A stretch of DNA of 64,000 nt from a virus: positions 1-64,000 of the IMG/VR virus record IMGVR_UViG_3300003873_000004. One strand, given 5' to 3'. The position numbers and the translations under genes were made by a program. Shown piece by piece: positions 1,142-48,618 of this stretch. The notes under the pieces were generated by a model that was not told the origin of the DNA, searched no databases, and saw nothing but the letters and a program-made list of their open reading frames with translations. How positions within the stretch are numbered: the stretch's first letter is position 1; every line of letters begins with the position of its first letter.

Positions 1142-4100
1142 ATGCCATCTTATAACAGTTCACCATATTTTGACGATTTTAACGCAAACAAAAACTTTTT
1201 GCGTGTGTTGTTTCGCCCAGGCAGAGCAGTTCAAGCGCGCGAATTGACTCAGGCTCAGACCATTCTTCAAAATCAGATTTCCTCTATGGCTTCTACCATA
1301 TTCAAAGAAAATTCGAGAGTTGTTGGTGCCACCACTTCAATCAAAACAAATAAGATGACGTTAGTTTTGAACACTACAGATTCTAACCATGCCGCAGTAG
1401 ATGTCAACACATTACTCGGATTGACTATTCAAGATGATACGACCGCATCAACTCAAGCAATCGTCACAGATGTTGATACAGCACAGAATGCGATTTTGCT
1501 TGATATTAAAGGTGGCTCTTTTGCTACAGGTACAGTATTCAGATTTTTAGATGCTATCACTGGAGCAACGTCAGCTAACACTTTCACTGTAGCATCTACA
1601 CATTATTCAATGGTAGCACACATCGATGCTGGTATTGTTTTTGTCAATAGTAAATTTGTCACAGTTCCAGCGCAAAACATTGTGGTTGATAGTTCTACTA
1701 CAATGGCAACGAAAGAATTTAATGTTGGATATGTAGTAAACGAGCATACCGTAGATTCTACACAGGATTCGACTCTTGTTGATAATGCTTCTGGTTCTTT
1801 GAACTTCAATGCGCCCGGCGCGGATAGACTTTCCGAATCTATAACACTTTCGGCTTATGAAGTATTGCGGGACGTGGCCGGAATAGAAACTTCTATCACA
1901 CCAAACAATTTCAGAAAAACTATGTTGATCAAAAATGGAGCGGTTCTTTCCGATCTTATTCAAAATGTAAAATATTCTGACATTTTAGATTTGCTGGCGC
2001 GCAGAACTTCGCTCGAATCCGGTAATTATGTCGTTCGCCCTTATAGAGTGACGACAAAAGCATCTACAAATCCAGCAAATTTCTCAGTTGATATTGGCGA
2101 AGGATCTGCTTTCGTGAATGGATATGAACTAAACAATCAATTCACCAAAACATTAGAAATTCCCAAATCCAGAGATTTTTCTACAGCAACAAATCAACAG
2201 TTGTATTTTGGCGCTGGCGCGTATTTTGATGTTTTGAATTTCACTGGCGCATTTGATGTTGATAATGAAGAGACTCTAACTTTCTACAATGGTGTGGGCG
2301 GAACAGGAACCGTTTTAGGTACAGCCAAGGTTTTGTCTGTTGTTCGAAATACTTTTGGGGATTTGCGTGTATATATTCAAAATTATGACAATTTTATTTC
2401 ATCGTTTTCTAGCGTTTCGTCATTTGTTGGCACTACAAGCGGAGCGAAAGCTAACGTAATTATAAAAAACAATAAAGCCGTATATTCTATTACTAATCAT
2501 TCTGACGCTATTGTTGATGTTTATGGTACTTCTAGCTACAATAACATTAAATCCATTCCCGCAGCTAGTGTAAGTTATGATGTGGTAAAAACCTTCTCCG
2601 CTGTTGCGGAAACTACGACAGGCTCAATGACGTATATATTGCCGGCTCCAAACACGTCTACAGATTTTTACGTCAATGGTGGCGTATATGCTCTTACCAA
2701 TTCAACAGGTGTGGAACTTGTTTTGGGGACAGACTACAGCATTTCTAGTGTGATCAATACTAACGGTGGAATTTCCACTATGACAATCGCAACAGTAGCA
2801 GCACAAGGTGCCATATCTGCCATTGTCCCGATGTATAAATCTGCAACAACAGCCAGACTAAAAAATGTAGTGAAAGGAACTCAAGAGACTATCACATCAG
2901 ACGTTAATGGTACAGTAAAACTTCTGACCGCCTATGATATTATCAATTTTGTAAGTGTTGAGGATATGACTGTTCCGGCCAGTCCTGTTGTCGTTCCTAG
3001 TGCGTCGTATGTTACTGATAACGGGCAACGAAATTGGTTCTATGATTTTGGTTCCGTTACGGGGCTAACCGCGAATACGTCTTATCGAATCACAGTAGAT
3101 CATTTCGATCACACGACTACTGGTGATTATTTCTCAGTTGATTCGTATATGAGTTTGCCAGCCAACTTGGATAGTGTTACAGGGTTCACTGATTTATATT
3201 CACGAATTGGTGATTATGCTAATGGCACATCTAGTTATAAATTGATCAATTGTATTGACACTCGTATGACAGTTGCCAATGCTGGTAATTCTGATAAAAT
3301 TCGAGCAGAATCACAAAATTTACAGATCAATTACGATTATTATATTGGCAGAATAGACAAAGTTTACATGGACTCACGTGGAAACTTCAATGTTTTATCG
3401 GGTATTCCATCAGAAAGTCCGAAAGAACCTACTTCTATTCCGGGGTCGATGGAAATTGCTATGTTTAGTATTCCTCCATACACGCACTCTTTTTCAGATG
3501 TTAGCTATGTTGGATTCAACAACACTCGTTATACGATGGCCGACATTGCCCGATTGGAAGCAAGATTGAAAAATGTGGAAGATTATACATCCTTGACGCT
3601 GTTAGAGAAAACGGCGCAGTCTATGTCAATTACTGATGCTAGAGGCCTGAATCGTTACAAAAATGGTATTTTTGTTGATGATTTTTCTTCTCACGCGAAC
3701 GGCAACACCACCGACCCTAATTACAATGCCACTATTGACCCGCTGGGCGGGCTAATGGCAAAACAGTCAGAAAACTTTAATGCTCTGAATGCTCGAACAT
3801 TGAATCGAACAAACATAGCAGAGCAGAAAAATCTAACCGTTCCAGCATTGAGCGCAGATACCGTTTCTCTTGGATATGTAGAAGTTGAGTTTATTTCACA
3901 AAAATTTAATTCGAATACCATAAACGTAAATCCTTACGCCGCTGTTGTGTGGCATGGTCAGGCAGCAATCAACCCTTCATCTGATATTTGGGTAGACACT
4001 ACATATTTGCCAACTAGCAACAATGTTCAAGGCGCAGTTGTTCAGGCATCGAGTTCAACGTCTACGCATGTTTCTATTCGGGACAAGTATTCTATGGTGT

Positions 4101-6337
4101 ATAATCCATACAACCATACAAAAGACCCAGGAGTCCTGGCCGGAATTTCAGCACAGATACAGGCAAGGCGGGCTTTAGGTATACCTCACGCCACTGGCGT
4201 CGCGATGAGCCAGAAAAGTGTCAAACAAGCATTTAATGGCGAAACACAAACGCAGGGTTGGGTCGCCCTTCAATTTAAGCGCAATAGAACGACAACAACT
4301 ACTGCTAATACGGTAACTGTTGTTCCAACTTCTTATACGACAACCACGGATAGCCTTGTATCAACTTCGGCTATTCCTTATATGCGTTCCCGTGCTGTAC
4401 ATTATACGCTTAGTGGAATGCGTCCAAATCAGACATTAATTTCTTCTTTTGACGGTATCGATGTTACTTCTCACTGTTCGAATCTTGTCGCAGATCCACA
4501 TGGTGGCTGTTCTGGCGTATTTACTATTCCTTCGGGACAATTCTTGACTGGAACCAAAACTTTGAAATTCTATGATGCGGTTGCTACAACCGATGCCAGC
4601 GCGGATTATTTCGCGCAGGGAACTTTACAACATCGTTTGATAACGACAACTACAATTCGCGGAAGTAGAACAGTCAACACAACCTCCACGAAAGTCACAA
4701 CAAAAGAAAAGCATGCCACTGTTTGGCTTGACCCAATCGCAGAAAGTTTCTTGCCAGTTACACCAAACGGAGAGGCGGGTGTGTATGTCACAAGTATAGA
4801 TTTGTTTTTCTCTACAAAAGCAACAGATTTGCCGGTAAGAATTTTCTTGGTTCCGACAAGTTCTGGAGTTCCAACGCAAAATATAATTCCATTATCTGAT
4901 GTTTCTTTGAACCCGGCTCAAGTGAACACATCTACAAATGGTTTCGTAGCAACGAATTTCAAATTTCAAGCCCCTGTTTATCTCGAAGCAAACGTAGAAT
5001 ATGCCGTTGTAATCACATCAAACAGTAATAACTATCATGTTTGGTATGCGAAACAGGGTGAGCCCACTTTGTTGAATCTAGCAGGTCAAACAGAAACAAA
5101 TAGAGGCGGTCTAGCTACGTCTAAACAACCATATTTGGGTGTTATGTTCAAATCACAAAACTCTTCAACTTGGACAGAAGATCAAAGTTCGGATTTGAAA
5201 TTCGTCATTCATCGTTGTGAATTTAATACTGCCGCTGGGTCTATGTACTTCGACACAGAGGATATGTCTGTTGCAACAGGTAACGGAAATGAAGGCATGA
5301 AAGCTAGCAGACTTCAGCCAAAACTCGAATCCCTGATCGTTGACGGCACCAATGTAGCGTATGATTATTCATTAGATAATGGAACTACATGGCTTCCGTT
5401 TGAAAATATATCCAAAATTTATAGTCCTACAACGCTAACATTGTCGACTGCCGCCGGCAACAAACCATTCAGCGTTCGAGCAACGATGACGACGAATAGT
5501 AGTTGGTTATCGCCAATGATAGATTTGAATAGAACCGGATATGCCACTTCATACAATGTTTATGACGTTAATCATGTTGGTGGAACGTATATTTCAAAAA
5601 CTGTTCAATTACAAAATCCAGCACTCGATTTCAGAGTTATGATAGATTTGCTCGAACCAGCAGGATCGAAGATTGACGTTTCGTTCAGTACGCAGACTCC
5701 TCAAGTTCCTATGAGCGCGACTAATGATTCTTTGAGTTATAGCGCAATTGATCTTGGTTTGATTGGCTTAGATTGTTTTGTATATCACAGGCAAACAACT
5801 ACTGGAAGTGTGACTAATGTTGGCGGATTTGTTCCAACAAAAATAACTAGCATTGATACTTTCGCCACAAACATCAGTAATATTGATATGTTTGTATCGC
5901 CAGCATCTTCGACAACGTATGCTGCTGTGGATAAAGTATTCTATACCAATGTTGCTGGATTGACTAATGTTATAGATTGGGTTGCTGGAAGTCATACAAT
6001 AGGAAGTTATGTATTCTATAATAACGCTATGTGGAAAGCATTGAACACAACAACAGCGGCGCCCACAACGAATTCGATTGATTGGGTAGAAATTCCATCA
6101 ATTTCAACCACTAGCGCAATGATTACCAACAATACGATAACTTGGCGACCAATGACAAGAACAAAAACATTGCCTGCCGGAATTGATCCAGGTTCTAACT
6201 TTTTCACATATACTCTAATTCCAGATAGTATTATCGAACAACCATTCGATAAATTTGCTGTGAAAATTGTCTTGACAAGTACGAATGACGCTGTTACTCC
6301 TACAGCGCAAAATCTAAGGGCGGTGGCAGCAACATGA
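1142..6337 (+). CDS. Large virion structural protein, VrlC/DUF4815-like
   Basis: N-terminal SPYFDDF..KNFLRVLFRPGRAVQARELTQAQTILQNQI, NFNAPGADRL, RYKNGIFVDDF, DPIAESF, MFKSQNSSTW; 1731 aa. Confidence 0.85.
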   Translation: MPSYNSSPYFDDFNANKNFLRVLFRPGRAVQARELTQAQTILQNQISSMASTIFKENSRVVGATTSIKTNKMTLVLNTTDSNHAAVDVNTLLGLTIQDDTTASTQAIVTDVDTAQNAILLDIKGGSFATGTVFRFLDAITGATSANTFTVASTHYSMVAHIDAGIVFVNSKFVTVPAQNIVVDSSTTMATKEFNVGYVVNEHTVDSTQDSTLVDNASGSLNFNAPGADRLSESITLSAYEVLRDVAGIETSITPNNFRKTMLIKNGAVLSDLIQNVKYSDILDLLARRTSLESGNYVVRPYRVTTKASTNPANFSVDIGEGSAFVNGYELNNQFTKTLEIPKSRDFSTATNQQLYFGAGAYFDVLNFTGAFDVDNEETLTFYNGVGGTGTVLGTAKVLSVVRNTFGDLRVYIQNYDNFISSFSSVSSFVGTTSGAKANVIIKNNKAVYSITNHSDAIVDVYGTSSYNNIKSIPAASVSYDVVKTFSAVAETTTGSMTYILPAPNTSTDFYVNGGVYALTNSTGVELVLGTDYSISSVINTNGGISTMTIATVAAQGAISAIVPMYKSATTARLKNVVKGTQETITSDVNGTVKLLTAYDIINFVSVEDMTVPASPVVVPSASYVTDNGQRNWFYDFGSVTGLTANTSYRITVDHFDHTTTGDYFSVDSYMSLPANLDSVTGFTDLYSRIGDYANGTSSYKLINCIDTRMTVANAGNSDKIRAESQNLQINYDYYIGRIDKVYMDSRGNFNVLSGIPSESPKEPTSIPGSMEIAMFSIPPYTHSFSDVSYVGFNNTRYTMADIARLEARLKNVEDYTSLTLLEKTAQSMSITDARGLNRYKNGIFVDDFSSHANGNTTDPNYNATIDPLGGLMAKQSENFNALNARTLNRTNIAEQKNLTVPALSADTVSLGYVEVEFISQKFNSNTINVNPYAAVVWHGQAAINPSSDIWVDTTYLPTSNNVQGAVVQASSSTSTHVSIRDKYSMVYNPYNHTKDPGVLAGISAQIQARRALGIPHATGVAMSQKSVKQAFNGETQTQGWVALQFKRNRTTTTTANTVTVVPTSYTTTTDSLVSTSAIPYMRSRAVHYTLSGMRPNQTLISSFDGIDVTSHCSNLVADPHGGCSGVFTIPSGQFLTGTKTLKFYDAVATTDASADYFAQGTLQHRLITTTTIRGSRTVNTTSTKVTTKEKHATVWLDPIAESFLPVTPNGEAGVYVTSIDLFFSTKATDLPVRIFLVPTSSGVPTQNIIPLSDVSLNPAQVNTSTNGFVATNFKFQAPVYLEANVEYAVVITSNSNNYHVWYAKQGEPTLLNLAGQTETNRGGLATSKQPYLGVMFKSQNSSTWTEDQSSDLKFVIHRCEFNTAAGSMYFDTEDMSVATGNGNEGMKASRLQPKLESLIVDGTNVAYDYSLDNGTTWLPFENISKIYSPTTLTLSTAAGNKPFSVRATMTTNSSWLSPMIDLNRTGYATSYNVYDVNHVGGTYISKTVQLQNPALDFRVMIDLLEPAGSKIDVSFSTQTPQVPMSATNDSLSYSAIDLGLIGLDCFVYHRQTTTGSVTNVGGFVPTKITSIDTFATNISNIDMFVSPASSTTYAAVDKVFYTNVAGLTNVIDWVAGSHTIGSYVFYNNAMWKALNTTTAAPTTNSIDWVEIPSISTTSAMITNNTITWRPMTRTKTLPAGIDPGSNFFTYTLIPDSIIEQPFDKFAVKIVLTSTNDAVTPTAQNLRAVAAT

Positions 6338-41269: not shown

Positions 41270-43393
41270 ATGAAAAAGAAAACTGAATTGCTGGCTAAAA
41301 TGATGGCCGCAGAAGATATTAACGTCATCTTCTCAAATGCTAAAACCGCCAGTTTCAATCCCGTATCCAGAACATTAGCAATGCCAACATTTGTAGAAGA
41401 CTCACCAGAGTGTGTACGATTTGGTTTCGTAGCACATGAAATTTCGCATGCTATTCACACACCAGCGGTAGAAAAAGTTACCCCGATTCTGAACATTGTC
41501 GAAGATATACGCATTGAGAAGTTGATCAAGCGTAAATTTCGCGGTTCTGCCAATTACATTTCAAAAATGTATGAATACTTATGGAGCGAAAACTTTTTTG
41601 GTTGTAATGAAGATGGAATCAACACCAAGAATTTTCTAGATCGCTTGAATGTTTATGCTAAGACCAAAGATTCTAAAAACGCTCCTAGTGTTCATTTTTC
41701 TGATGAAGAACAAAAGTTGGTTGATCGTTCTTTCCTTACGACGTCATTTGAAGATGTGCTGTCACTATGTGAAGAAATCAAAGAGTTCATGAAAAATCAA
41801 CAGCAAAATGAAGAACCAGAAACTACAAAAGAAATTCGCCGCGATAGTGACGAATCAGAAGAACAGAAAGAAAGTCAAGTTGAAGAATCTGATGCTGACG
41901 AAGAAGAAACTGACGAAGAGTCAGAAGAAAGCGAAAAACAAGAGTCTGAAGTGGATGAAGAGGAATCCCAAGACGAATCAGAAGAACAGAAAGAAAGTCA
42001 AGTTGAAGAATCTGATGCTGACGAAGAAGAAACTGACGAAGAAGAAACTGACGAAGTCAAACCATCAGGTCAGCTTGACGGCGAGACGATTCAAGAAGAA
42101 TTTGAGCCAGAATCAGAAACTCAAGATCAACTAGATAACGCTTTCAATGAAATGGTAGATAAAGAAAAGAAAAGTGAAGATGTTGCTATGGTTGGAAGTT
42201 TTCCAGAAGATTTGATCCACAAAGACGGGGTTATCGAATTTCTCGAGAAGAAAATGAAATATACAAAAGGCGGTATCACGTATGGTACTGGCATACATCG
42301 TCGATATGTCAGCAATGTGGTTTTGCTTCTTGATTCAGATGACAGAACTGCGAAATTTATCAATGATGCTAAGGCTCAGGTAGCTTTGCTTTGTAAACAA
42401 TTCGACATGAAAAAACGGGCTTCTCTATTTTCGAAGAGTAAAATCGCATCTACTGGGGAACTTGATGTGAATTTGCTGTCAGAATATAAATTTAAAGATG
42501 ACCTATTCTTGAAAGATGAAATCTTACCAAAAGGAAAGAATCATGGTTTGGTGCTGCTGATAGACTTTTCGTATTCAATGGAGAGCCGAATAGATGCCAC
42601 GTGCAAACAAGCTGCTGTTTTGGCGCTGTTTGCTAGAAAGGCTAACATCCCATTGAAAATATATGGGTTTACGACAGCACGATGGCGTGGATTTGATGCC
42701 AAGAAATTTGATGTTTCTGAGCAGGAAATCAACATTGGCAAAGCTGTTATTTTTCAGATTATTGACACATCAATCAAAGTTTCAAAATCTGATTTTGTTC
42801 GCGTCATTAAATTGTTGACACATGCCCCGACATGGTTTTATGATATTTCTGGAATGACTCCAATGTCAACTACAGCAATGGTGGTCAGCGATGACGTTAT
42901 TCGCTGGAAATCAAAAAATCAAATCGAACGCGTTAGCACATTGTTTCTTACTGATGGTGCTTCACACTATCCGGTTAAGAAAAACATTGATCCTAAAATA
43001 GACAAAGATTTTCTAGTTTTTTATGGAAAATTGTTTGACACTAAAACCAAAAAGAAGCACGAAAGTTCCGATATGAGGTCGGCTTATAAAATATACAAAG
43101 ATCGTACACAATCATCAATTGGAACAATGTTTATCGCCACAAGAAAAGATTTTCGTTATATTGTTAATGCCAAAGACTTTTCTGAATTGAAAGCAGAAGG
43201 TATTGTGAAAGTTGATTATATGAGCGACGTTGTTGATGCCTATTTTTACATGACTGACGAAGATCGGCTTTCCGATGTCGCTGACATGGAAATCGAAGAA
43301 GGAAAAGCTGCTGGTCGATCGTTCACAAAGAAAGCCCGCGCTAAAGCCAAGTCGATAGTGTTTGTTACATACTTTGCTGAACTGCTCGGATAG
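41270..43393 (+). CDS. CobT-like protein: HExxH peptidase-like domain, acidic linker, VWA domain
   Basis: AHEISH, NIVEDIRIE, LLIDFSYSM (MIDAS), FLTDG. Confidence 0.85.
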   Translation: MKKKTELLAKMMAAEDINVIFSNAKTASFNPVSRTLAMPTFVEDSPECVRFGFVAHEISHAIHTPAVEKVTPILNIVEDIRIEKLIKRKFRGSANYISKMYEYLWSENFFGCNEDGINTKNFLDRLNVYAKTKDSKNAPSVHFSDEEQKLVDRSFLTTSFEDVLSLCEEIKEFMKNQQQNEEPETTKEIRRDSDESEEQKESQVEESDADEEETDEESEESEKQESEVDEEESQDESEEQKESQVEESDADEEETDEEETDEVKPSGQLDGETIQEEFEPESETQDQLDNAFNEMVDKEKKSEDVAMVGSFPEDLIHKDGVIEFLEKKMKYTKGGITYGTGIHRRYVSNVVLLLDSDDRTAKFINDAKAQVALLCKQFDMKKRASLFSKSKIASTGELDVNLLSEYKFKDDLFLKDEILPKGKNHGLVLLIDFSYSMESRIDATCKQAAVLALFARKANIPLKIYGFTTARWRGFDAKKFDVSEQEINIGKAVIFQIIDTSIKVSKSDFVRVIKLLTHAPTWFYDISGMTPMSTTAMVVSDDVIRWKSKNQIERVSTLFLTDGASHYPVKKNIDPKIDKDFLVFYGKLFDTKTKKKHESSDMRSAYKIYKDRTQSSIGTMFIATRKDFRYIVNAKDFSELKAEGIVKVDYMSDVVDAYFYMTDEDRLSDVADMEIEEGKAAGRSFTKKARAKAKSIVFVTYFAELLG
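41849..42042 (+). repeat. 71-bp in-frame direct repeat (41849-41919, 41972-42042) in the acidic linker
   Basis: Encodes DESEEQKESQVEESDADEEETDE twice. Confidence 0.9.
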
Positions 43394-43417
43394 GTGCTTG
43401 ACAAACAGAGCAAAAGG

Positions 43418-43756
43418 GTCTAGACTTATTGTATTGACAGAGACAAACCACAGGAGATTTAATTATGGCACAAGAAGTATCAATTACAGATTTTGAAAAG
43501 CAAGTGAAAAGAGCCAAAGACGTTTTTGCTTATGTTGAAGGAATTGGATACCTCAAGGTAACCAAACAATCTTTGCTTGCTACTGTCGACAACTATCCAG
43601 AAGACGACTATTTTTTCAGGCCCGACGAAAATGCGGTTTATATCAATTAACGCTTGACAAACAGGTTAAAAGAGTCTAGACTTATTGTATTGACAGAGAC
43701 AAACCACAGGAGATTTAATTATGGCACAAGAAGTATCAATTACAGATTTTGAAAAG
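43418..43756 (+). repeat. 83-bp direct repeat (43418-43500, 43674-43756): -10 box, leader, SD and first 12 codons
   Basis: gtctagacttattgtattgacagagacaaaccacaggagatttaattatggcacaagaagtatcaattacagattttgaaaag occurs twice. Confidence 0.95.
43465..43650 (+). CDS. 61-aa hypothetical protein sharing its N-terminus with the AAA+ gene
   Basis: MAQEVSITDFEK identical to the start at 43721. Confidence 0.65.
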   Translation: MAQEVSITDFEKQVKRAKDVFAYVEGIGYLKVTKQSLLATVDNYPEDDYFFRPDENAVYIN

Positions 43757-44632
43757 GGCGTTCTTGCTGAATATGGAACCAACGAATTATGTCGTCGAAA
43801 GATTGTTGAGTTTGCTAAGAAATATGATTACCGGGTTCCAAAACAGGTTTGGAATAACAAAACGTCAGAGAAGCGCGGCGCGACATATATTGTATCGGAA
43901 CAACAAGTAACCAAGACTCAGACAGTAGATCAGAGTCAGCTAGTTGAAACACCAATAGCGGTAAAACCAAAGGCTGAAGTCGAAATGGTCGGTGGTATCA
44001 AAGCTATCCGTAGTACGGAAACACGTTACACCATCGACAAAGATCCAAACTTCATCCGTTGGGGCAACTTTTCAGACTTTCGAGCAATCATCAAAGCAAA
44101 TCGTTTCTTTCCCACTTTTGTCACTGGGTTGTCTGGTAACGGTAAGACTACAGGAATCGAGCAGGCTTGCGCGGCAGAGGGTCGAGAATGTATTCGATTC
44201 AACTTCACTCGTGAAACTGGTGCGGACGATTTGCTTGGCGGGCTTAGGCTGATTGACGGAGATACTGTTTTTCAGTATGGTCCGATTGCTGAGGCATATA
44301 TGCGTGGAGCAATCCTTATACTGGACGAATGTCTAGAAGAAAACGAAGAGGTTCGAGTTGGAAAGGTGAACGAATGGGTTCCAATGAAACTCAAGGATAT
44401 GAATTTTGGCCAAACTTACCCTGTAGTGTCATTTAATCAAGATACTGGAAAGTTTGAAAACGATACGGCTTCTATTATTTCGGATAAAGATGACGATCTT
44501 TACGAAGTTGAATTGGAAGATGGTTCGACAGTTGTTGTAAACTCGAAGCATCCGTTTGTGGTTGGCGACGGCAAAGAAACCAAAACAATAGAAGATGGAC
44601 TTATTGTAGGTGCCGAAGTGGTCGTTGCTTAA
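43721..44632 (+). CDS. MoxR/CobS-like AAA+ ATPase N-extein fused to split-intein N-part (44330-44629, 100 aa)
   Basis: Walker A GLSGNGKT, DDLLGG, Walker B ILILDE then CLEENEEV (block A), LYEVELEDG, VNSKHPF (block B), stop. Confidence 0.9.
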   Translation: MAQEVSITDFEKGVLAEYGTNELCRRKIVEFAKKYDYRVPKQVWNNKTSEKRGATYIVSEQQVTKTQTVDQSQLVETPIAVKPKAEVEMVGGIKAIRSTETRYTIDKDPNFIRWGNFSDFRAIIKANRFFPTFVTGLSGNGKTTGIEQACAAEGRECIRFNFTRETGADDLLGGLRLIDGDTVFQYGPIAEAYMRGAILILDECLEENEEVRVGKVNEWVPMKLKDMNFGQTYPVVSFNQDTGKFENDTASIISDKDDDLYEVELEDGSTVVVNSKHPFVVGDGKETKTIEDGLIVGAEVVVA

Positions 44633-44672
44633 TTCATGTAATTCCAAAAACTGAAATTATATAAATAAAGAT

Positions 44673-45821
44673 ATGGATATAAATTATATAAACTTCGTTA
44701 AAGAAAATTTGGATTGGTATATAGAAAATGTTACGATTCCTGGGACAGTAGACATATATGATGGTGTTTATCACAATAGGTCTATTGCCCGGGACAAGTA
44801 TAAAGAAATACAGCAAATAGATGTCGAGAAAGCTTGCCCAACGTGTGGTAAGAAATTCACCAGAAATATTCGACACAAGAAAATATATTGTGGTTCCACC
44901 TGTCGTTATGGAGCAAAGAGGTCGACAAAGAAATATAGAACAAGAGAGAAAACCAACATCGTAACATACTCAGGATTACAGGAAGTTCTCACAGAACTCA
45001 GAAAAATTAACGCTATCGAATATTTAAAAAACTACACCTTCCAAAATAAACCAATACAAAAGACAAACACCAAGAAAATCCGAGAGATACTTACGTTGTT
45101 TTCTAAAGACGACACCTTCGATGTTATTTTTGTAGACGGTTCGTTTGGGAAGATACCAGTGAAAAGAACCCAGTTTTCTGAGGATTATTTAGCAAAGGCC
45201 ATAAAATTAGGCATTCTCAACGAAGGTTCATCATACGACGAAATATACAAAACGAAATTTCCAGACGCGTATGCCAAATGTATAAAATGCGGAAATGACT
45301 TTTTGAAATACAAATATAGTCAAACCGAGAAACGGTTAATTAGGAATATTATGTATGACCTTTGTTCTTATAAATGTATATGTGATTCAAGAAATGAATT
45401 ATATCCAGTATCAGACGAAACAAGGCAGCGGCAGTCGAACACTACAAAGTCTATTATAGCCAAAGGGCTGTTTACGCCAATCAACAATGCTATGAGGGGC
45501 AGAAAACAATCAACCAGCGAAAAATACGGAGAGGAAGTAAAATTCGATAGTTCCTGGGAGAAAAAGTTTTACGAGGAATATGAATATGAATTAAAACGAA
45601 GCACCCCTAGAATAGAATATATCTCTCCAATCGACAACAAATCCCACATATATGTTGTTGATTTTTTCGACAACAGAACAAAAACGATGATAGAAATCAA
45701 GCCGTCTTGCCACGTTTCTGATGAAGTTATAGTTGCTAAGACGGCAGCGGCAAAATTATGGGCAGAAGAACACGAGTGTACATTTAAAATTATCACGGAA
45801 AAAGATTATGATTTCTCTTGA
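44673..45821 (+). CDS. Free-standing TnsA-like PD-(D/E)xK putative homing endonuclease
   Basis: Zinc motifs CPTC..YCGSTC and CIKC..LCSYKC; FDSSWE, IEY, YVVDF, IEIKP; TATAAATA-N5-ATG. Confidence 0.7.
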   Translation: MDINYINFVKENLDWYIENVTIPGTVDIYDGVYHNRSIARDKYKEIQQIDVEKACPTCGKKFTRNIRHKKIYCGSTCRYGAKRSTKKYRTREKTNIVTYSGLQEVLTELRKINAIEYLKNYTFQNKPIQKTNTKKIREILTLFSKDDTFDVIFVDGSFGKIPVKRTQFSEDYLAKAIKLGILNEGSSYDEIYKTKFPDAYAKCIKCGNDFLKYKYSQTEKRLIRNIMYDLCSYKCICDSRNELYPVSDETRQRQSNTTKSIIAKGLFTPINNAMRGRKQSTSEKYGEEVKFDSSWEKKFYEEYEYELKRSTPRIEYISPIDNKSHIYVVDFFDNRTKTMIEIKPSCHVSDEVIVAKTAAAKLWAEEHECTFKIITEKDYDFS

Positions 45822-45884
45822 CAAAGTGTTCGAAAGGGTCTAGACTTATTGTATTGAAAGAGACAAATCAAAGGAGAATTTATT

Positions 45885-46553
45885 ATGGAAACAAAAAAAG
45901 TAGTTTCAATCAAAAAAGTAGGTCGCGGGCATGTCCGCAATTTGTGTGTAAACAAAAATCACACGTTCGTCACATCTAACGGAATAGTTACCCACAATTG
46001 CGACCTAGCAGATGCTAGAATAATGTGCCTTCAATCAGTTCTCGAAGGCAAGCCAATTTTCCTGCCAAAACTTGGTAAGAAAATTCATCCGGCTAAGGGA
46101 TTCAATGTGTTTGCTACTGCTAATACCAAAGGTAAAGGTTCAGATAGTGGGCAATTCATGGGAACAAATGTCATGAATGAAGCATTTCTTGATCGGTTTT
46201 CAATCACCATTGAACAGAGTTATCCAGCCGCGGCGATTGAGAAGAAGATCGTCAGTAAATATGCCACTGACTATTTCGGCCATGTTCTCAGTTTGCGAGA
46301 TCAGACGGTTTGTGATAACTTGGTAACTTGGGCACAGATCACCCGCAAGAGTTTCCTGGAAGGTTCAATTGACGAACTGATTTCGACTCGTCGACTGATT
46401 GCTACGGTTGAGTCGTATGCCATTTTCGGTTCAAATATCGAAAAGAGTATTGAATATGCTACGAACAGGTTTGATGACGATACTAAGGAAAGCTTCGTGG
46501 AACTGTACAAGCAAATCGATTCTGGTATGAAAACATTTGAGGAGGACGAATAA
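45885..46553 (+). CDS. Split-intein C-part (38 aa, 45885-45998) fused to AAA+ ATPase C-extein
   Basis: KKVVSIKKVG..VRNLCV..NHTFVTSNGIVTHN then CDLAD; ATANTKG, NEAFLDRF, ISTRRL; own promoter (45818) and SD. Confidence 0.92.
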   Translation: METKKVVSIKKVGRGHVRNLCVNKNHTFVTSNGIVTHNCDLADARIMCLQSVLEGKPIFLPKLGKKIHPAKGFNVFATANTKGKGSDSGQFMGTNVMNEAFLDRFSITIEQSYPAAAIEKKIVSKYATDYFGHVLSLRDQTVCDNLVTWAQITRKSFLEGSIDELISTRRLIATVESYAIFGSNIEKSIEYATNRFDDDTKESFVELYKQIDSGMKTFEEDE

Positions 46554-47658: not shown

Positions 47659-48618
47659 ATGTCAATGAAAAATTTATTTCGAAATGACGACTACTTATTT
47701 ACGAACAAATACATGCCAAATCATGTATCTGAGATGATACTTCCAAAGAGAATCAAAGATGTATTTCTGGAAATGGTGAACAACGGCAAAGGTCAGACAC
47801 TATTATTGAATGGGCCTCCTGGAGTAGGTAAGACGAGTGTTTCTCTTTGTATTGCTAATGATCTAAATGCTGATGTGATGTTCGTAAATGCTTCTCTTGA
47901 AGGAAACATGGACTTATTGCGAAATAAGGTCTCTGACTTTGCTTCCAGTGTATCGATGGAAAATTCCGGCAAGAAAAAGGTTATTATACTCGACGAAATC
48001 GAGGGGGTTTCCCCAGCGGTTCAATTATCTTTGCGTGGAATGTTAGAAAAGTTCTCAAAAAATGTGATTTTTATTCTAACCACAAATTTCAAGAATCGTC
48101 TAATTCCACCCCTGATTTCTAGGTGTAATGTGACCGACTTCATTTTTGACAATGACGAAAAGGTCGAGATGCAAGCTGGAATGTTTGAACGGGTGTTGTA
48201 TATTCTAAAACAAGAAAATATAACGGCAGAACCAAAGGTGATCGCGCAGTTAGTCAAGAGGTTCTTTCCAGACTTTAGACGCTTGCTGAACGAACTCCAG
48301 AAATATGGGGCTACTGGTTCCATCGATACTGGAATTCTAGGTGTAGTTGGCGATGCTCGTATTTCTGATTTGATGAATTTGCTCAAGAATAAGAAATTTA
48401 CAGAAATGAGAAAATGGGTGGCCCAATCTGATGTTGGTGATGTTCAAATCTTTCGATCAATTTATGATACATCTTATGATTATATTGCACCAGCTTCTAT
48501 TCCAGAACTGGTTTTGATCATTGCTGATTTTCAGTACAAGGCAGCATTTGTAGCAGATGCGGAAATTAACCTTGCTGCCTGTCTAACAACCATTATGACA
48601 GAGTGTCAATTCCAATAG
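47659..48618 (+). CDS. gp44: Clamp loader ATPase subunit
   Basis: GPPGVGKT, IILDE, LISRC, FFPDFRR, VADAEIN. Confidence 0.95.
   Translation: MSMKNLFRNDDYLFTNKYMPNHVSEMILPKRIKDVFLEMVNNGKGQTLLLNGPPGVGKTSVSLCIANDLNADVMFVNASLEGNMDLLRNKVSDFASSVSMENSGKKKVIILDEIEGVSPAVQLSLRGMLEKFSKNVIFILTTNFKNRLIPPLISRCNVTDFIFDNDEKVEMQAGMFERVLYILKQENITAEPKVIAQLVKRFFPDFRRLLNELQKYGATGSIDTGILGVVGDARISDLMNLLKNKKFTEMRKWVAQSDVGDVQIFRSIYDTSYDYIAPASIPELVLIIADFQYKAAFVADAEINLAACLTTIMTECQFQ

Follow-up and report, generated by a model that had tools for sequence, protein, structure and literature searches.

Can an ATPase whose gene is cut in two within its Walker B motif still be made as one protein? This question is raised by a locus in the first 64,000 nucleotides (the window) of the IMG/VR virus record IMGVR_UViG_3300003873_000004, where the coding sequence of a CobS-like AAA+ ATPase breaks off after the Walker B glutamate and is taken up again in a second open reading frame (ORF), with a nuclease gene between the two. 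An original prediction, made from the letters alone, read the tails at the break as the two parts of a naturally split intein, and the positions, ORFs and motifs which it named are all present in the sequence. The comparisons given below make it very probable that the locus is a fractured cobS-like gene of a T4-like phage and that the split intein within it is natural, real and intact-looking; the ATPase would then be assembled by protein trans-splicing.

The locus consists of three ORFs, all on the plus strand (Table 1). The first encodes the N-terminal half of the ATPase and ends in the N-terminal intein part (IntN), the second encodes the nuclease, and the third opens with the C-terminal intein part (IntC) and continues into the rest of the ATPase. 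Spacers of 40 nucleotides (nt) between the IntN stop codon and the nuclease ORF and of 63 nt between the nuclease and IntC ORFs separate the genes. The GC content of the insert is 0.33-0.37 versus 0.41-0.47 in the ATPase parts, hereafter the exteins.

The motifs expected of an intein are found at both edges of the break (a hyphen within a motif marks the splice or insertion point). Block A starts at Cys204 (44330-44332), directly after ILILDE, and reads CLEENEEV; its Cys column is at least 90% conserved in an alignment of 21 relatives. IntN also contains LYEVELEDG and, in the block B region, VNSKHPF. As pointed out in the original prediction, block B has an unusual NSKH, in which Asn274 replaces the usual Thr; His277 is present, and both residues are at least 90% conserved among the same relatives. 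This Asn is typical of most cobS alleles and of some alleles in a clamp-loader gene, and other clamp-loader alleles keep the Thr (TSNH, TDNH, TENH). At the opposite edge the C-terminal junction reads VTHN-C, that is, His-Asn and then Cys+1. The 21 aligned relatives show little or no variation at Cys1, at the block B His, at the terminal His-Asn and at Cys+1, and the family as a whole retains Cys1, this His and a terminal THN followed by Cys or Ser.

The two exteins are colinear with intact ATPases. The N-half passes the Pfam profile PF07728 (AAA_5; 34.5 bits against a cut-off of 22), and the cyanophage profile phrog_249 ('CobS / porphyrin biosynthesis') is matched by the N-half over positions 44-202 (E 2e-36) and by the C-half over positions 202-360 (E 3e-57), so that the two matches meet exactly at the break. 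Residues 1-203 of ORF 43721 joined to residues 39-222 of ORF 45885 give a protein of 387 amino acids (aa), which aligns end to end with three intact homologs: P0002 (390 aa, 79% identity), P0003 (378 aa, 75% identity) and CobS of Synechococcus phage S-BM3 (49% identity). None of these alignments has a gap at the junction, which bears out the claim that joining the halves yields a colinear ATPase with an intact ILILDE-CD. At the nucleotide level, BLASTN joined the two extein pieces on intact cobS genes of cyanophages, in which they match 454 nt without interruption. The intein-free homologs read DE-L/I-D and the intein-bearing ones DE-C-D. The C-extein covers positions 152-312 of TIGR01650, the cobaltochelatase CobS equivalog; as the ATPase scores 59.8 bits, far under the cut-off of 558.55, it is called CobS-like here, in line with the annotation of cyanophage genes, and a cobaltochelatase role is not implied.

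IntC passes the NCBIfam profile TIGR01443 (intein_Cterm; cut-off 15.6 bits) with 25.2 bits, and with 28.3 bits when the genome was searched. A PDB sequence search with IntC gave 13 matches, all of them inteins (Spl DnaX, Npu DnaE IntC, RadA, DnaB, PolII), and in most cases the aligned part lies at the C-terminal splice junction of the chain or close to it; the best was the Spl DnaX mini-intein (E 0.008). The block B region of IntN aligned weakly to DnaE inteins in the corresponding search. IntN is 44-63% identical to the IntN of relatives found in about 40 independent database clusters. The contiguous inteins of this family include L085 and L084: L085 (IntN identity 44%) passes PF14890 with 51.5 bits against a cut-off of 35.8, and L084 (53%) stays under that cut-off with 30.7 bits and matches solved inteins at E 2e-6. 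The resemblance is not due to chance, because both halves meet on one PHROG profile and some 40 clusters carry the same IntN.

The halves are also charge-complementary as had been proposed, with 22 Asp/Glu versus 9 Lys/Arg in IntN and 1 versus 7 in IntC. A complex prediction for residues 198-303 of the first ORF, which include IntN, and residues 1-46 of the last, which include IntC, gave an ipSAE of 0.78 versus 0.02 for the best of three controls, with at least 94% of contacts agreeing between runs and a predicted local distance difference test score (pLDDT) of at least 77 for the partner. Of 78 solved complexes 51 attain this docking mark, as do 2 of 108 mismatched pairs. As a model result, the predicted docking may show likeness to solved split-intein complexes rather than binding of this IntN/IntC pair.

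The same intein family is found in several genomic settings and in two host genes. Fractured genes with this intein are seen in a second cobS (L082), where the 'peptidase' gene precedes the ATPase as in the window, and in gp44-like clamp-loader genes (L083, L086 and L087), where both the intein and the nuclease belong to the same families. Contiguous mini-inteins occur in clamp-loader genes (L084, L085, P0056) and in one cobS (P0018). L087 comes from LR756500, a 462-kb uncultured phage whose record has no annotation, and the sole GenBank phage record with a matching IntN is unannotated. The insertion point is the same in every case, directly behind the Walker B Glu, hhhhDE-(C/S)D, and at the residue that follows it the intein-free sites carry Ile, Leu or Phe. 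In L083, L086 and L087 the nuclease and IntC ORFs overlap.

IntN is identical in the contiguous P0018 and the split P0017, and the intein-free alleles L088 and L089 (DEID) are 97% identical to the P0018 exteins. A single lineage thus contains split, contiguous and intein-free alleles, which argues for a gain or loss in the recent past. In a tree of IntN built from about 100 columns, the window copy pairs with a clamp-loader allele (Shimodaira-Hasegawa-like approximate likelihood ratio test support 85), and the best tree has eight host changes, of which well-supported branches force one. This support is too weak to count host switches, and the claim is therefore limited to both hosts carrying one intein family. 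The window's own gp44 clamp loader (47659-48618) is intein-free and reads VIILDE-IEG; the same Walker B site is occupied in other phages.

Two of these relatives have peculiarities of their own. In the clamp-loader gene of L086 (1028-3345), Ser stands at +1 (THN-SDYLS) and LNE replaces LDE in Walker B, so that either the ATPase subunit may be degenerate in this allele or the nucleophile may be a variant one. The intein-free cobS of L088 (3501-4913; also in L089) has an in-frame insert of about 100 codons with two stops, situated in the loop between GGFRL and TVW..NGP, which splits the gene into ORFs of 191 and 249 aa without any intein.

The gene between the halves was predicted to encode a TnsA-like endonuclease, and the profile and fold comparisons agree. 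The protein passes PF08722 (Tn7_TnsA-like_N; 37.7 bits against a cut-off of 26.5, E 3e-9). An AlphaFold2 model is confident over about residues 280-378 alone (pLDDT 75-95), and its top fold match is TnsA (1t0f; Z 9.6, root-mean-square deviation 3.3, 112 residues aligned), with further matches to Vsr (Z 6.8) and I-Bth0305I (PDB 3r3p; Z 6.3). The N-terminal part contains Cys-rich zinc-ribbon-like motifs and is poorly modeled. The motifs SSW(E/D)...VDF...EIKP form a canonical E/D/ExK set which is common to four intein-associated homologs; in their alignment D330, E341, K343 and S293-S294-W295 are invariant, and E296 is Asp in L086. PHROG matches were phrog_15427 ('endonuclease') and phrog_218 ('head closure', E 3e-7), the latter of which we take to be the T4 gp4 family. 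T4 gp4 has been described as a TnsA-like nuclease with a restriction endonuclease fold (PMC7824862).

A Pfam scan of the nuclease gave no GIY-YIG or Vsr match, and a word-based homolog search returned the query alone. A profile of the four homologs showed that the nuclease belongs to a large and mostly unnamed family: it matched 2618 cluster representatives with an E value up to 1e-3, and 316 with one up to 1e-30. Against the PDB sequences this profile found nothing meaningful, the likeness to TnsA and Vsr structures coming from fold comparison only. The nuclease gene is present as a single copy in the 95-kb viral record.

Each ATPase half was also said to have its own promoter and Shine-Dalgarno (SD) sequence, and both have been located (Table 1). 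The promoter type is general and the leader is specific. TTGACA-N17-TAGACT has 12 matches in the window, 11 of them on the plus strand, versus 0.07 expected, and is the general early-promoter type of this phage; the leader TCTAGACTTATTGTATTGA.AGAGACAAA is confined to three sites in the 64 kb, versus 0 expected. A direct-repeat search and alignment delimited a 105-nt unit of promoter, leader, SD sequence and first codons. Copies 1 and 2 share 96% identity; copy 3 is 70% identical overall, with most of the approximately 70 nt of promoter and leader identical. The C-half thus has a paralogous copy of the ATPase gene's own promoter and leader to drive it, and this duplication plausibly balances the output of the two ATPase halves. 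The TGA stop codon of the nuclease gene (45819-45821) is located inside the -35 hexamer of the C-half promoter.

Copies 1 and 2 form a 256-bp tandem duplication at 43396-43756, which comprises promoter, leader, SD sequence and the first 12 codons (MAQEVSITDFEK) and encloses a 61-aa ORF (43465-43650). The first 12 codons of this ORF equal those of the ATPase gene, and no Pfam match was found for it. Recombination between promoter cassettes inserts and shuffles small genes in T4-type phages, and the 61-aa ORF looks like a small gene placed in this way.

Table 1. Coordinates of the features at and around the fractured ATPase locus
Feature	Position	Strand	Description
ORF of the N-half	43721..44632	+	303 aa: N-half of the CobS-like AAA+ ATPase, then the IntN tail
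N-extein	43721..44329	+	ATPase residues 1-203; Walker A GLSGNGKT, Walker B up to ILILDE
IntN	44330..44632	+	100 aa from Cys1 (Cys204), plus TAA stop
TATAAATA	44660..44667	+	T4-type late-promoter consensus, 5 nt 5' of the nuclease start codon, in the 40-nt spacer
Free-standing endonuclease gene	44673..45821	+	382 aa; C-terminal TnsA-like PD-(D/E)xK domain, about residues 280-378
ORF of the C-half	45885..46553	+	222 aa: IntC is the first 38 residues, Cys39 is +1
IntC	45885..45998	+	38 aa, blocks F and G (VRNLCVNKNHTF ... NGIVTHN), His-Asn end
C-extein	45999..46553	+	Cys+1, then 184 aa plus stop: CDLADARIM, sensor-1 ATANT, AFLDRF, lid domain
Repeat copy 1	43396..43500	+	105-nt promoter-leader-start unit; drives the 61-aa ORF 43465-43650 (putative)
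Repeat copy 2	43652..43756	+	N-half: -35 TTGACA 43654-43659, -10 TAGACT 43677-43682, SD AGGAGA 43708-43713, ATG 43721
Repeat copy 3	45816..45920	+	C-half: -35 TTGACA 45818-45823, -10 TAGACT 45841-45846, SD AGGAGA 45872-45877, ATG 45885
Upstream partner gene	41270..43393	+	707-aa 'peptidase'/CobT-like protein with acidic linker; phrog_459 E 1e-101

Several observations weigh against a functional split intein with its own homing nuclease, and both trans-splicing and homing are inferred. The original prediction proposed that intein profiles be run on both parts; IntC is recognized, and IntN by itself stays under the curated cut-offs of TIGR01445 (22.4 versus 24.5 bits) and PF14890 (14.9 versus 35.8 bits) and carries Asn at block B where most inteins carry Thr. 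Split-intein complexes have already been solved, and so the docking score may stem from model memory. In the window TATAAATA occurs at chance level (four copies versus 4.5 expected), an RNA hairpin around it is not significant (z = -0.96), and no terminator is predicted on the plus strand between the N-half and the nuclease gene, which makes the transcription scheme a consensus-based guess.

The same features of IntN, that is, its sub-threshold scores and the block B Asn, could be those of a clasp which holds the ATPase pieces together non-covalently, so that the enzyme works as two chains; the predicted docking fits mere association equally well. We consider this improbable, as all residues on which the chemistry depends, from Cys1 and the His of block B to the penultimate His, terminal Asn and +1 nucleophile, are kept in about 50 diverged alleles of two host genes. 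The +1 residue is Cys or Ser in intein-bearing alleles only, versus Ile, Leu or Phe in intein-free ones, a pattern predicted by selection for splicing. Furthermore, an unspliced HINT domain of 138 aa would interrupt the Walker B strand.

It is still less likely that cobS has been disrupted by insertion of a mobile element and is decaying, with neither half functional. The cobS-like genes are accessory in T4-like phages, and the stop-bearing insert of L088/L089 demonstrates that broken-looking cobS genes exist; in the window, however, both halves are full-length and stop-free, their identity to intact homologs is 75-79% from end to end, each has a strong promoter and SD sequence, and many diverged lineages have the same layout. 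As the sequence comes from a metagenomic viral contig (95,268 bp, completeness estimated at 52%), one might suspect an assembly or gene-calling artifact in which the stops are errors and the real gene holds an uninterrupted intein together with an endonuclease in frame. This is the least credible of the three, since non-coding spacers with stop, promoter, SD sequence and start codon set the nuclease ORF apart from both halves, the same three-ORF layout is found at five or more independent loci, and about 30 database clusters share an identical C-terminal end point of IntN.

For the split intein favored here, the following course of events is proposed. A class-1 mini-intein would have invaded the cobS-like gene at the codon after the Walker B Glu (hhhhDE-C), and a free-standing TnsA-like homing-endonuclease gene would then have broken the intein into two genes. 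Early promoter-leader units of nearly the same sequence would serve for the transcription of both halves. IntN, which is acidic (100 aa), would associate with the basic IntC (38 aa) and fold with it into a HINT domain, and protein trans-splicing would ligate the exteins to an ATPase of 387 aa with the Walker B region ILILDE-CD, whose spliced-junction peptide would read ...ILILDECDLADAR. Most likely, the nuclease cuts intein-free alleles during co-infection, which would spread the whole cassette.

The surroundings of the locus are those of a T4-like cyanophage. The upstream protein has a weak CobT_C VWA match (E 7e-4, under the cut-off), and a 'peptidase'/CobT-like gene together with a cobS-like ATPase gene is the usual gene pair of T4-like cyanophages. 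The same gene order is seen in cyanophage S-BM3, L082, L088 and L090. Downstream of the ATPase locus follow gp45 and gp44, an order which also matches T4-like cyanophages; identity to the gp44 of the nearest isolates is just about 48%.

The layout itself is known from the fractured genes of Dassa et al. 2009 (PMC2677866), to which the original prediction had likened it. These comprise gp41-1 to gp41-9, NrdJ-1/2, NrdA-1 to 7, IMPDH-1 to 3, DnaE, ligase, terminase and one unknown protein. As in those genes, three ORFs on the same strand encode N-extein-IntN, a free-standing endonuclease and IntC-C-extein, the spacer after IntN is short (40 nt here, 27-51 nt there), and the lengths of IntN (100 aa) and IntC (38 aa) are within the ranges of 88-105 and 33-54 aa. 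Opposite net charges of the halves, the position of TATAAATA just 5' of the nuclease start codon, occurrence mainly in T4-like phages and the existence of a nuclease-free allele are further shared features. In those loci a regulatory hairpin with a late-promoter element precedes the endonuclease gene, whose 3' end overlaps the IntC ORF. The present locus differs in its host, since a CobS-like AAA+ ATPase is absent from their eight DNA-metabolism enzymes; its insertion site is the Walker B DE-C, and the IntC gene of the window does not overlap the nuclease gene and has its own copy of the host promoter and leader. The nuclease is TnsA-like with a canonical E...D...ExK, whereas theirs are GIY-YIG or Vsr-like; one component has thus changed with the layout remaining the same. 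PDB sequence searches (E up to 10) returned no entry named for the Dassa inteins, although the presence of such structures in the PDB copy was not checked.

CobS, ATPase and clamp loader are not mentioned in PMC2677866 or in the library of 34 split inteins of PMC7090010. An intein at this site was not described in the literature searched for inteins with CobS, cobalt chelatase, MoxR or cyanophage, with most subscription journals and InBase outside its coverage. The suggestion of a new insertion site therefore stands as far as these sources reach, but the intein is not unique to cobS. The fractured-gene layout is already known, and the host gene, the cut site and the nuclease type appear undescribed.

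Among the insertion sites described so far, the closest belongs to the DnaX (PolIII gamma/tau) intein of cyanobacteria, whose insertion point a is 'immediately after' Walker B (Novikova et al. 2016, PMC4760082); at the level of this description the two sites agree. Both are class-1 (Cys1) inteins, the DnaX one residing in an AAA+ ATPase of the clamp-loader type, and in both cases mini-intein and endonuclease-bearing alleles coexist and the endonuclease has a reading frame other than that of the splicing domain. The out-of-frame endonuclease of DnaX has been read as a secondary invasion of a mini-intein (Phillips, DeSimone & Gogarten 2026, bioRxiv 10.64898/2026.09.14.751524). In contrast to the window, the DnaX intein is cellular and contained in one gene, and its endonuclease lies in an overlapping frame without a free-standing gene or signals of its own. 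The similarity between the DnaX intein and that of the window is weak.

For the nuclease, the C-terminal domain resembles the N-terminal nuclease domain of Tn7 TnsA and the T4 gp4 head-completion nuclease (PF08722, 1t0f fold, phrog_218). It differs from both in following a Cys-rich, probably DNA-binding region of about 280 aa and in residing inside an intein, and from TnsA in having no TnsB or TnsC partners; its setting is that of a homing endonuclease and not of a transposase or packaging nuclease. The EDxHD or 'Vsr-like' homing endonucleases (I-Bth0305I) share with it a PD-(D/E)xK-type fold, phage carriage, modularity and an association with inteins or introns. Their fold score is lower than that of TnsA, and their general base is described to be an activated His, whereas the nuclease of the window has the canonical D-x10-E-x-K.

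Other possibly mobile sequences were noted in the related contigs and in the viral record itself. In L083, a 155-kb viral contig, a 431-aa ORF (3327-4622), TnpB-like by eye, lies directly 5' of the fractured clamp-loader gene. The record which contains the window has a second intein at about 94.0-94.4 kb (L107:649-2745), beyond the window, a contiguous mini-intein that runs from CLVGDTKVKV to ILVHN-CSEI and scores 56.9 bits combined with PF14890 and 39.8 bits with TIGR01443. Read from the translation, its candidate host is a ribonucleotide reductase large-subunit-like gene.

A broader scheme is put forward tentatively, and we hold it to be possible rather than probable. The intein and its TnsA-like nuclease may form a cassette which moves between the Walker B sites of the non-orthologous cobS-like and gp44-like clamp-loader genes, which are 1-2 kb apart in T4-like genomes, by ectopic homing guided by the coding sequence of hhhhDE-xD. 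The cassette would cycle repeatedly between contiguous and fractured states, and the window copy would have captured a duplicate of the host promoter-leader so that the halves are made in step. The lineage with Asn in block B could be a new, fast and orthogonal split intein.

Four aspects of the locus appear to be new: the host gene with its Walker B site, the TnsA-like partner, one intein family in two AAA+ hosts, and the duplicated promoter-leader. Each new natural split intein is a candidate orthogonal part for protein ligation, and this pair is of interest for engineering because it is split canonically into 100 and 38 aa, has LDE and CDL as its native flanks, differs markedly in charge between its halves and carries the unusual block B Asn. 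About 50 natural variants, contiguous ones included, accompany the pair for comparison. For the fractured genes of phages, the AAA+ Walker B site and a third, TnsA-like nuclease family would be added, with two different AAA+ hosts carrying one intein family at equivalent places of their structures. A hint of how a phage regains balanced expression after a selfish element has broken one of its genes comes from the duplicated promoter-leader. The intein-free, mini-intein and fractured alleles with near-identical exteins offer material for testing models in which endonuclease invasion creates split inteins.

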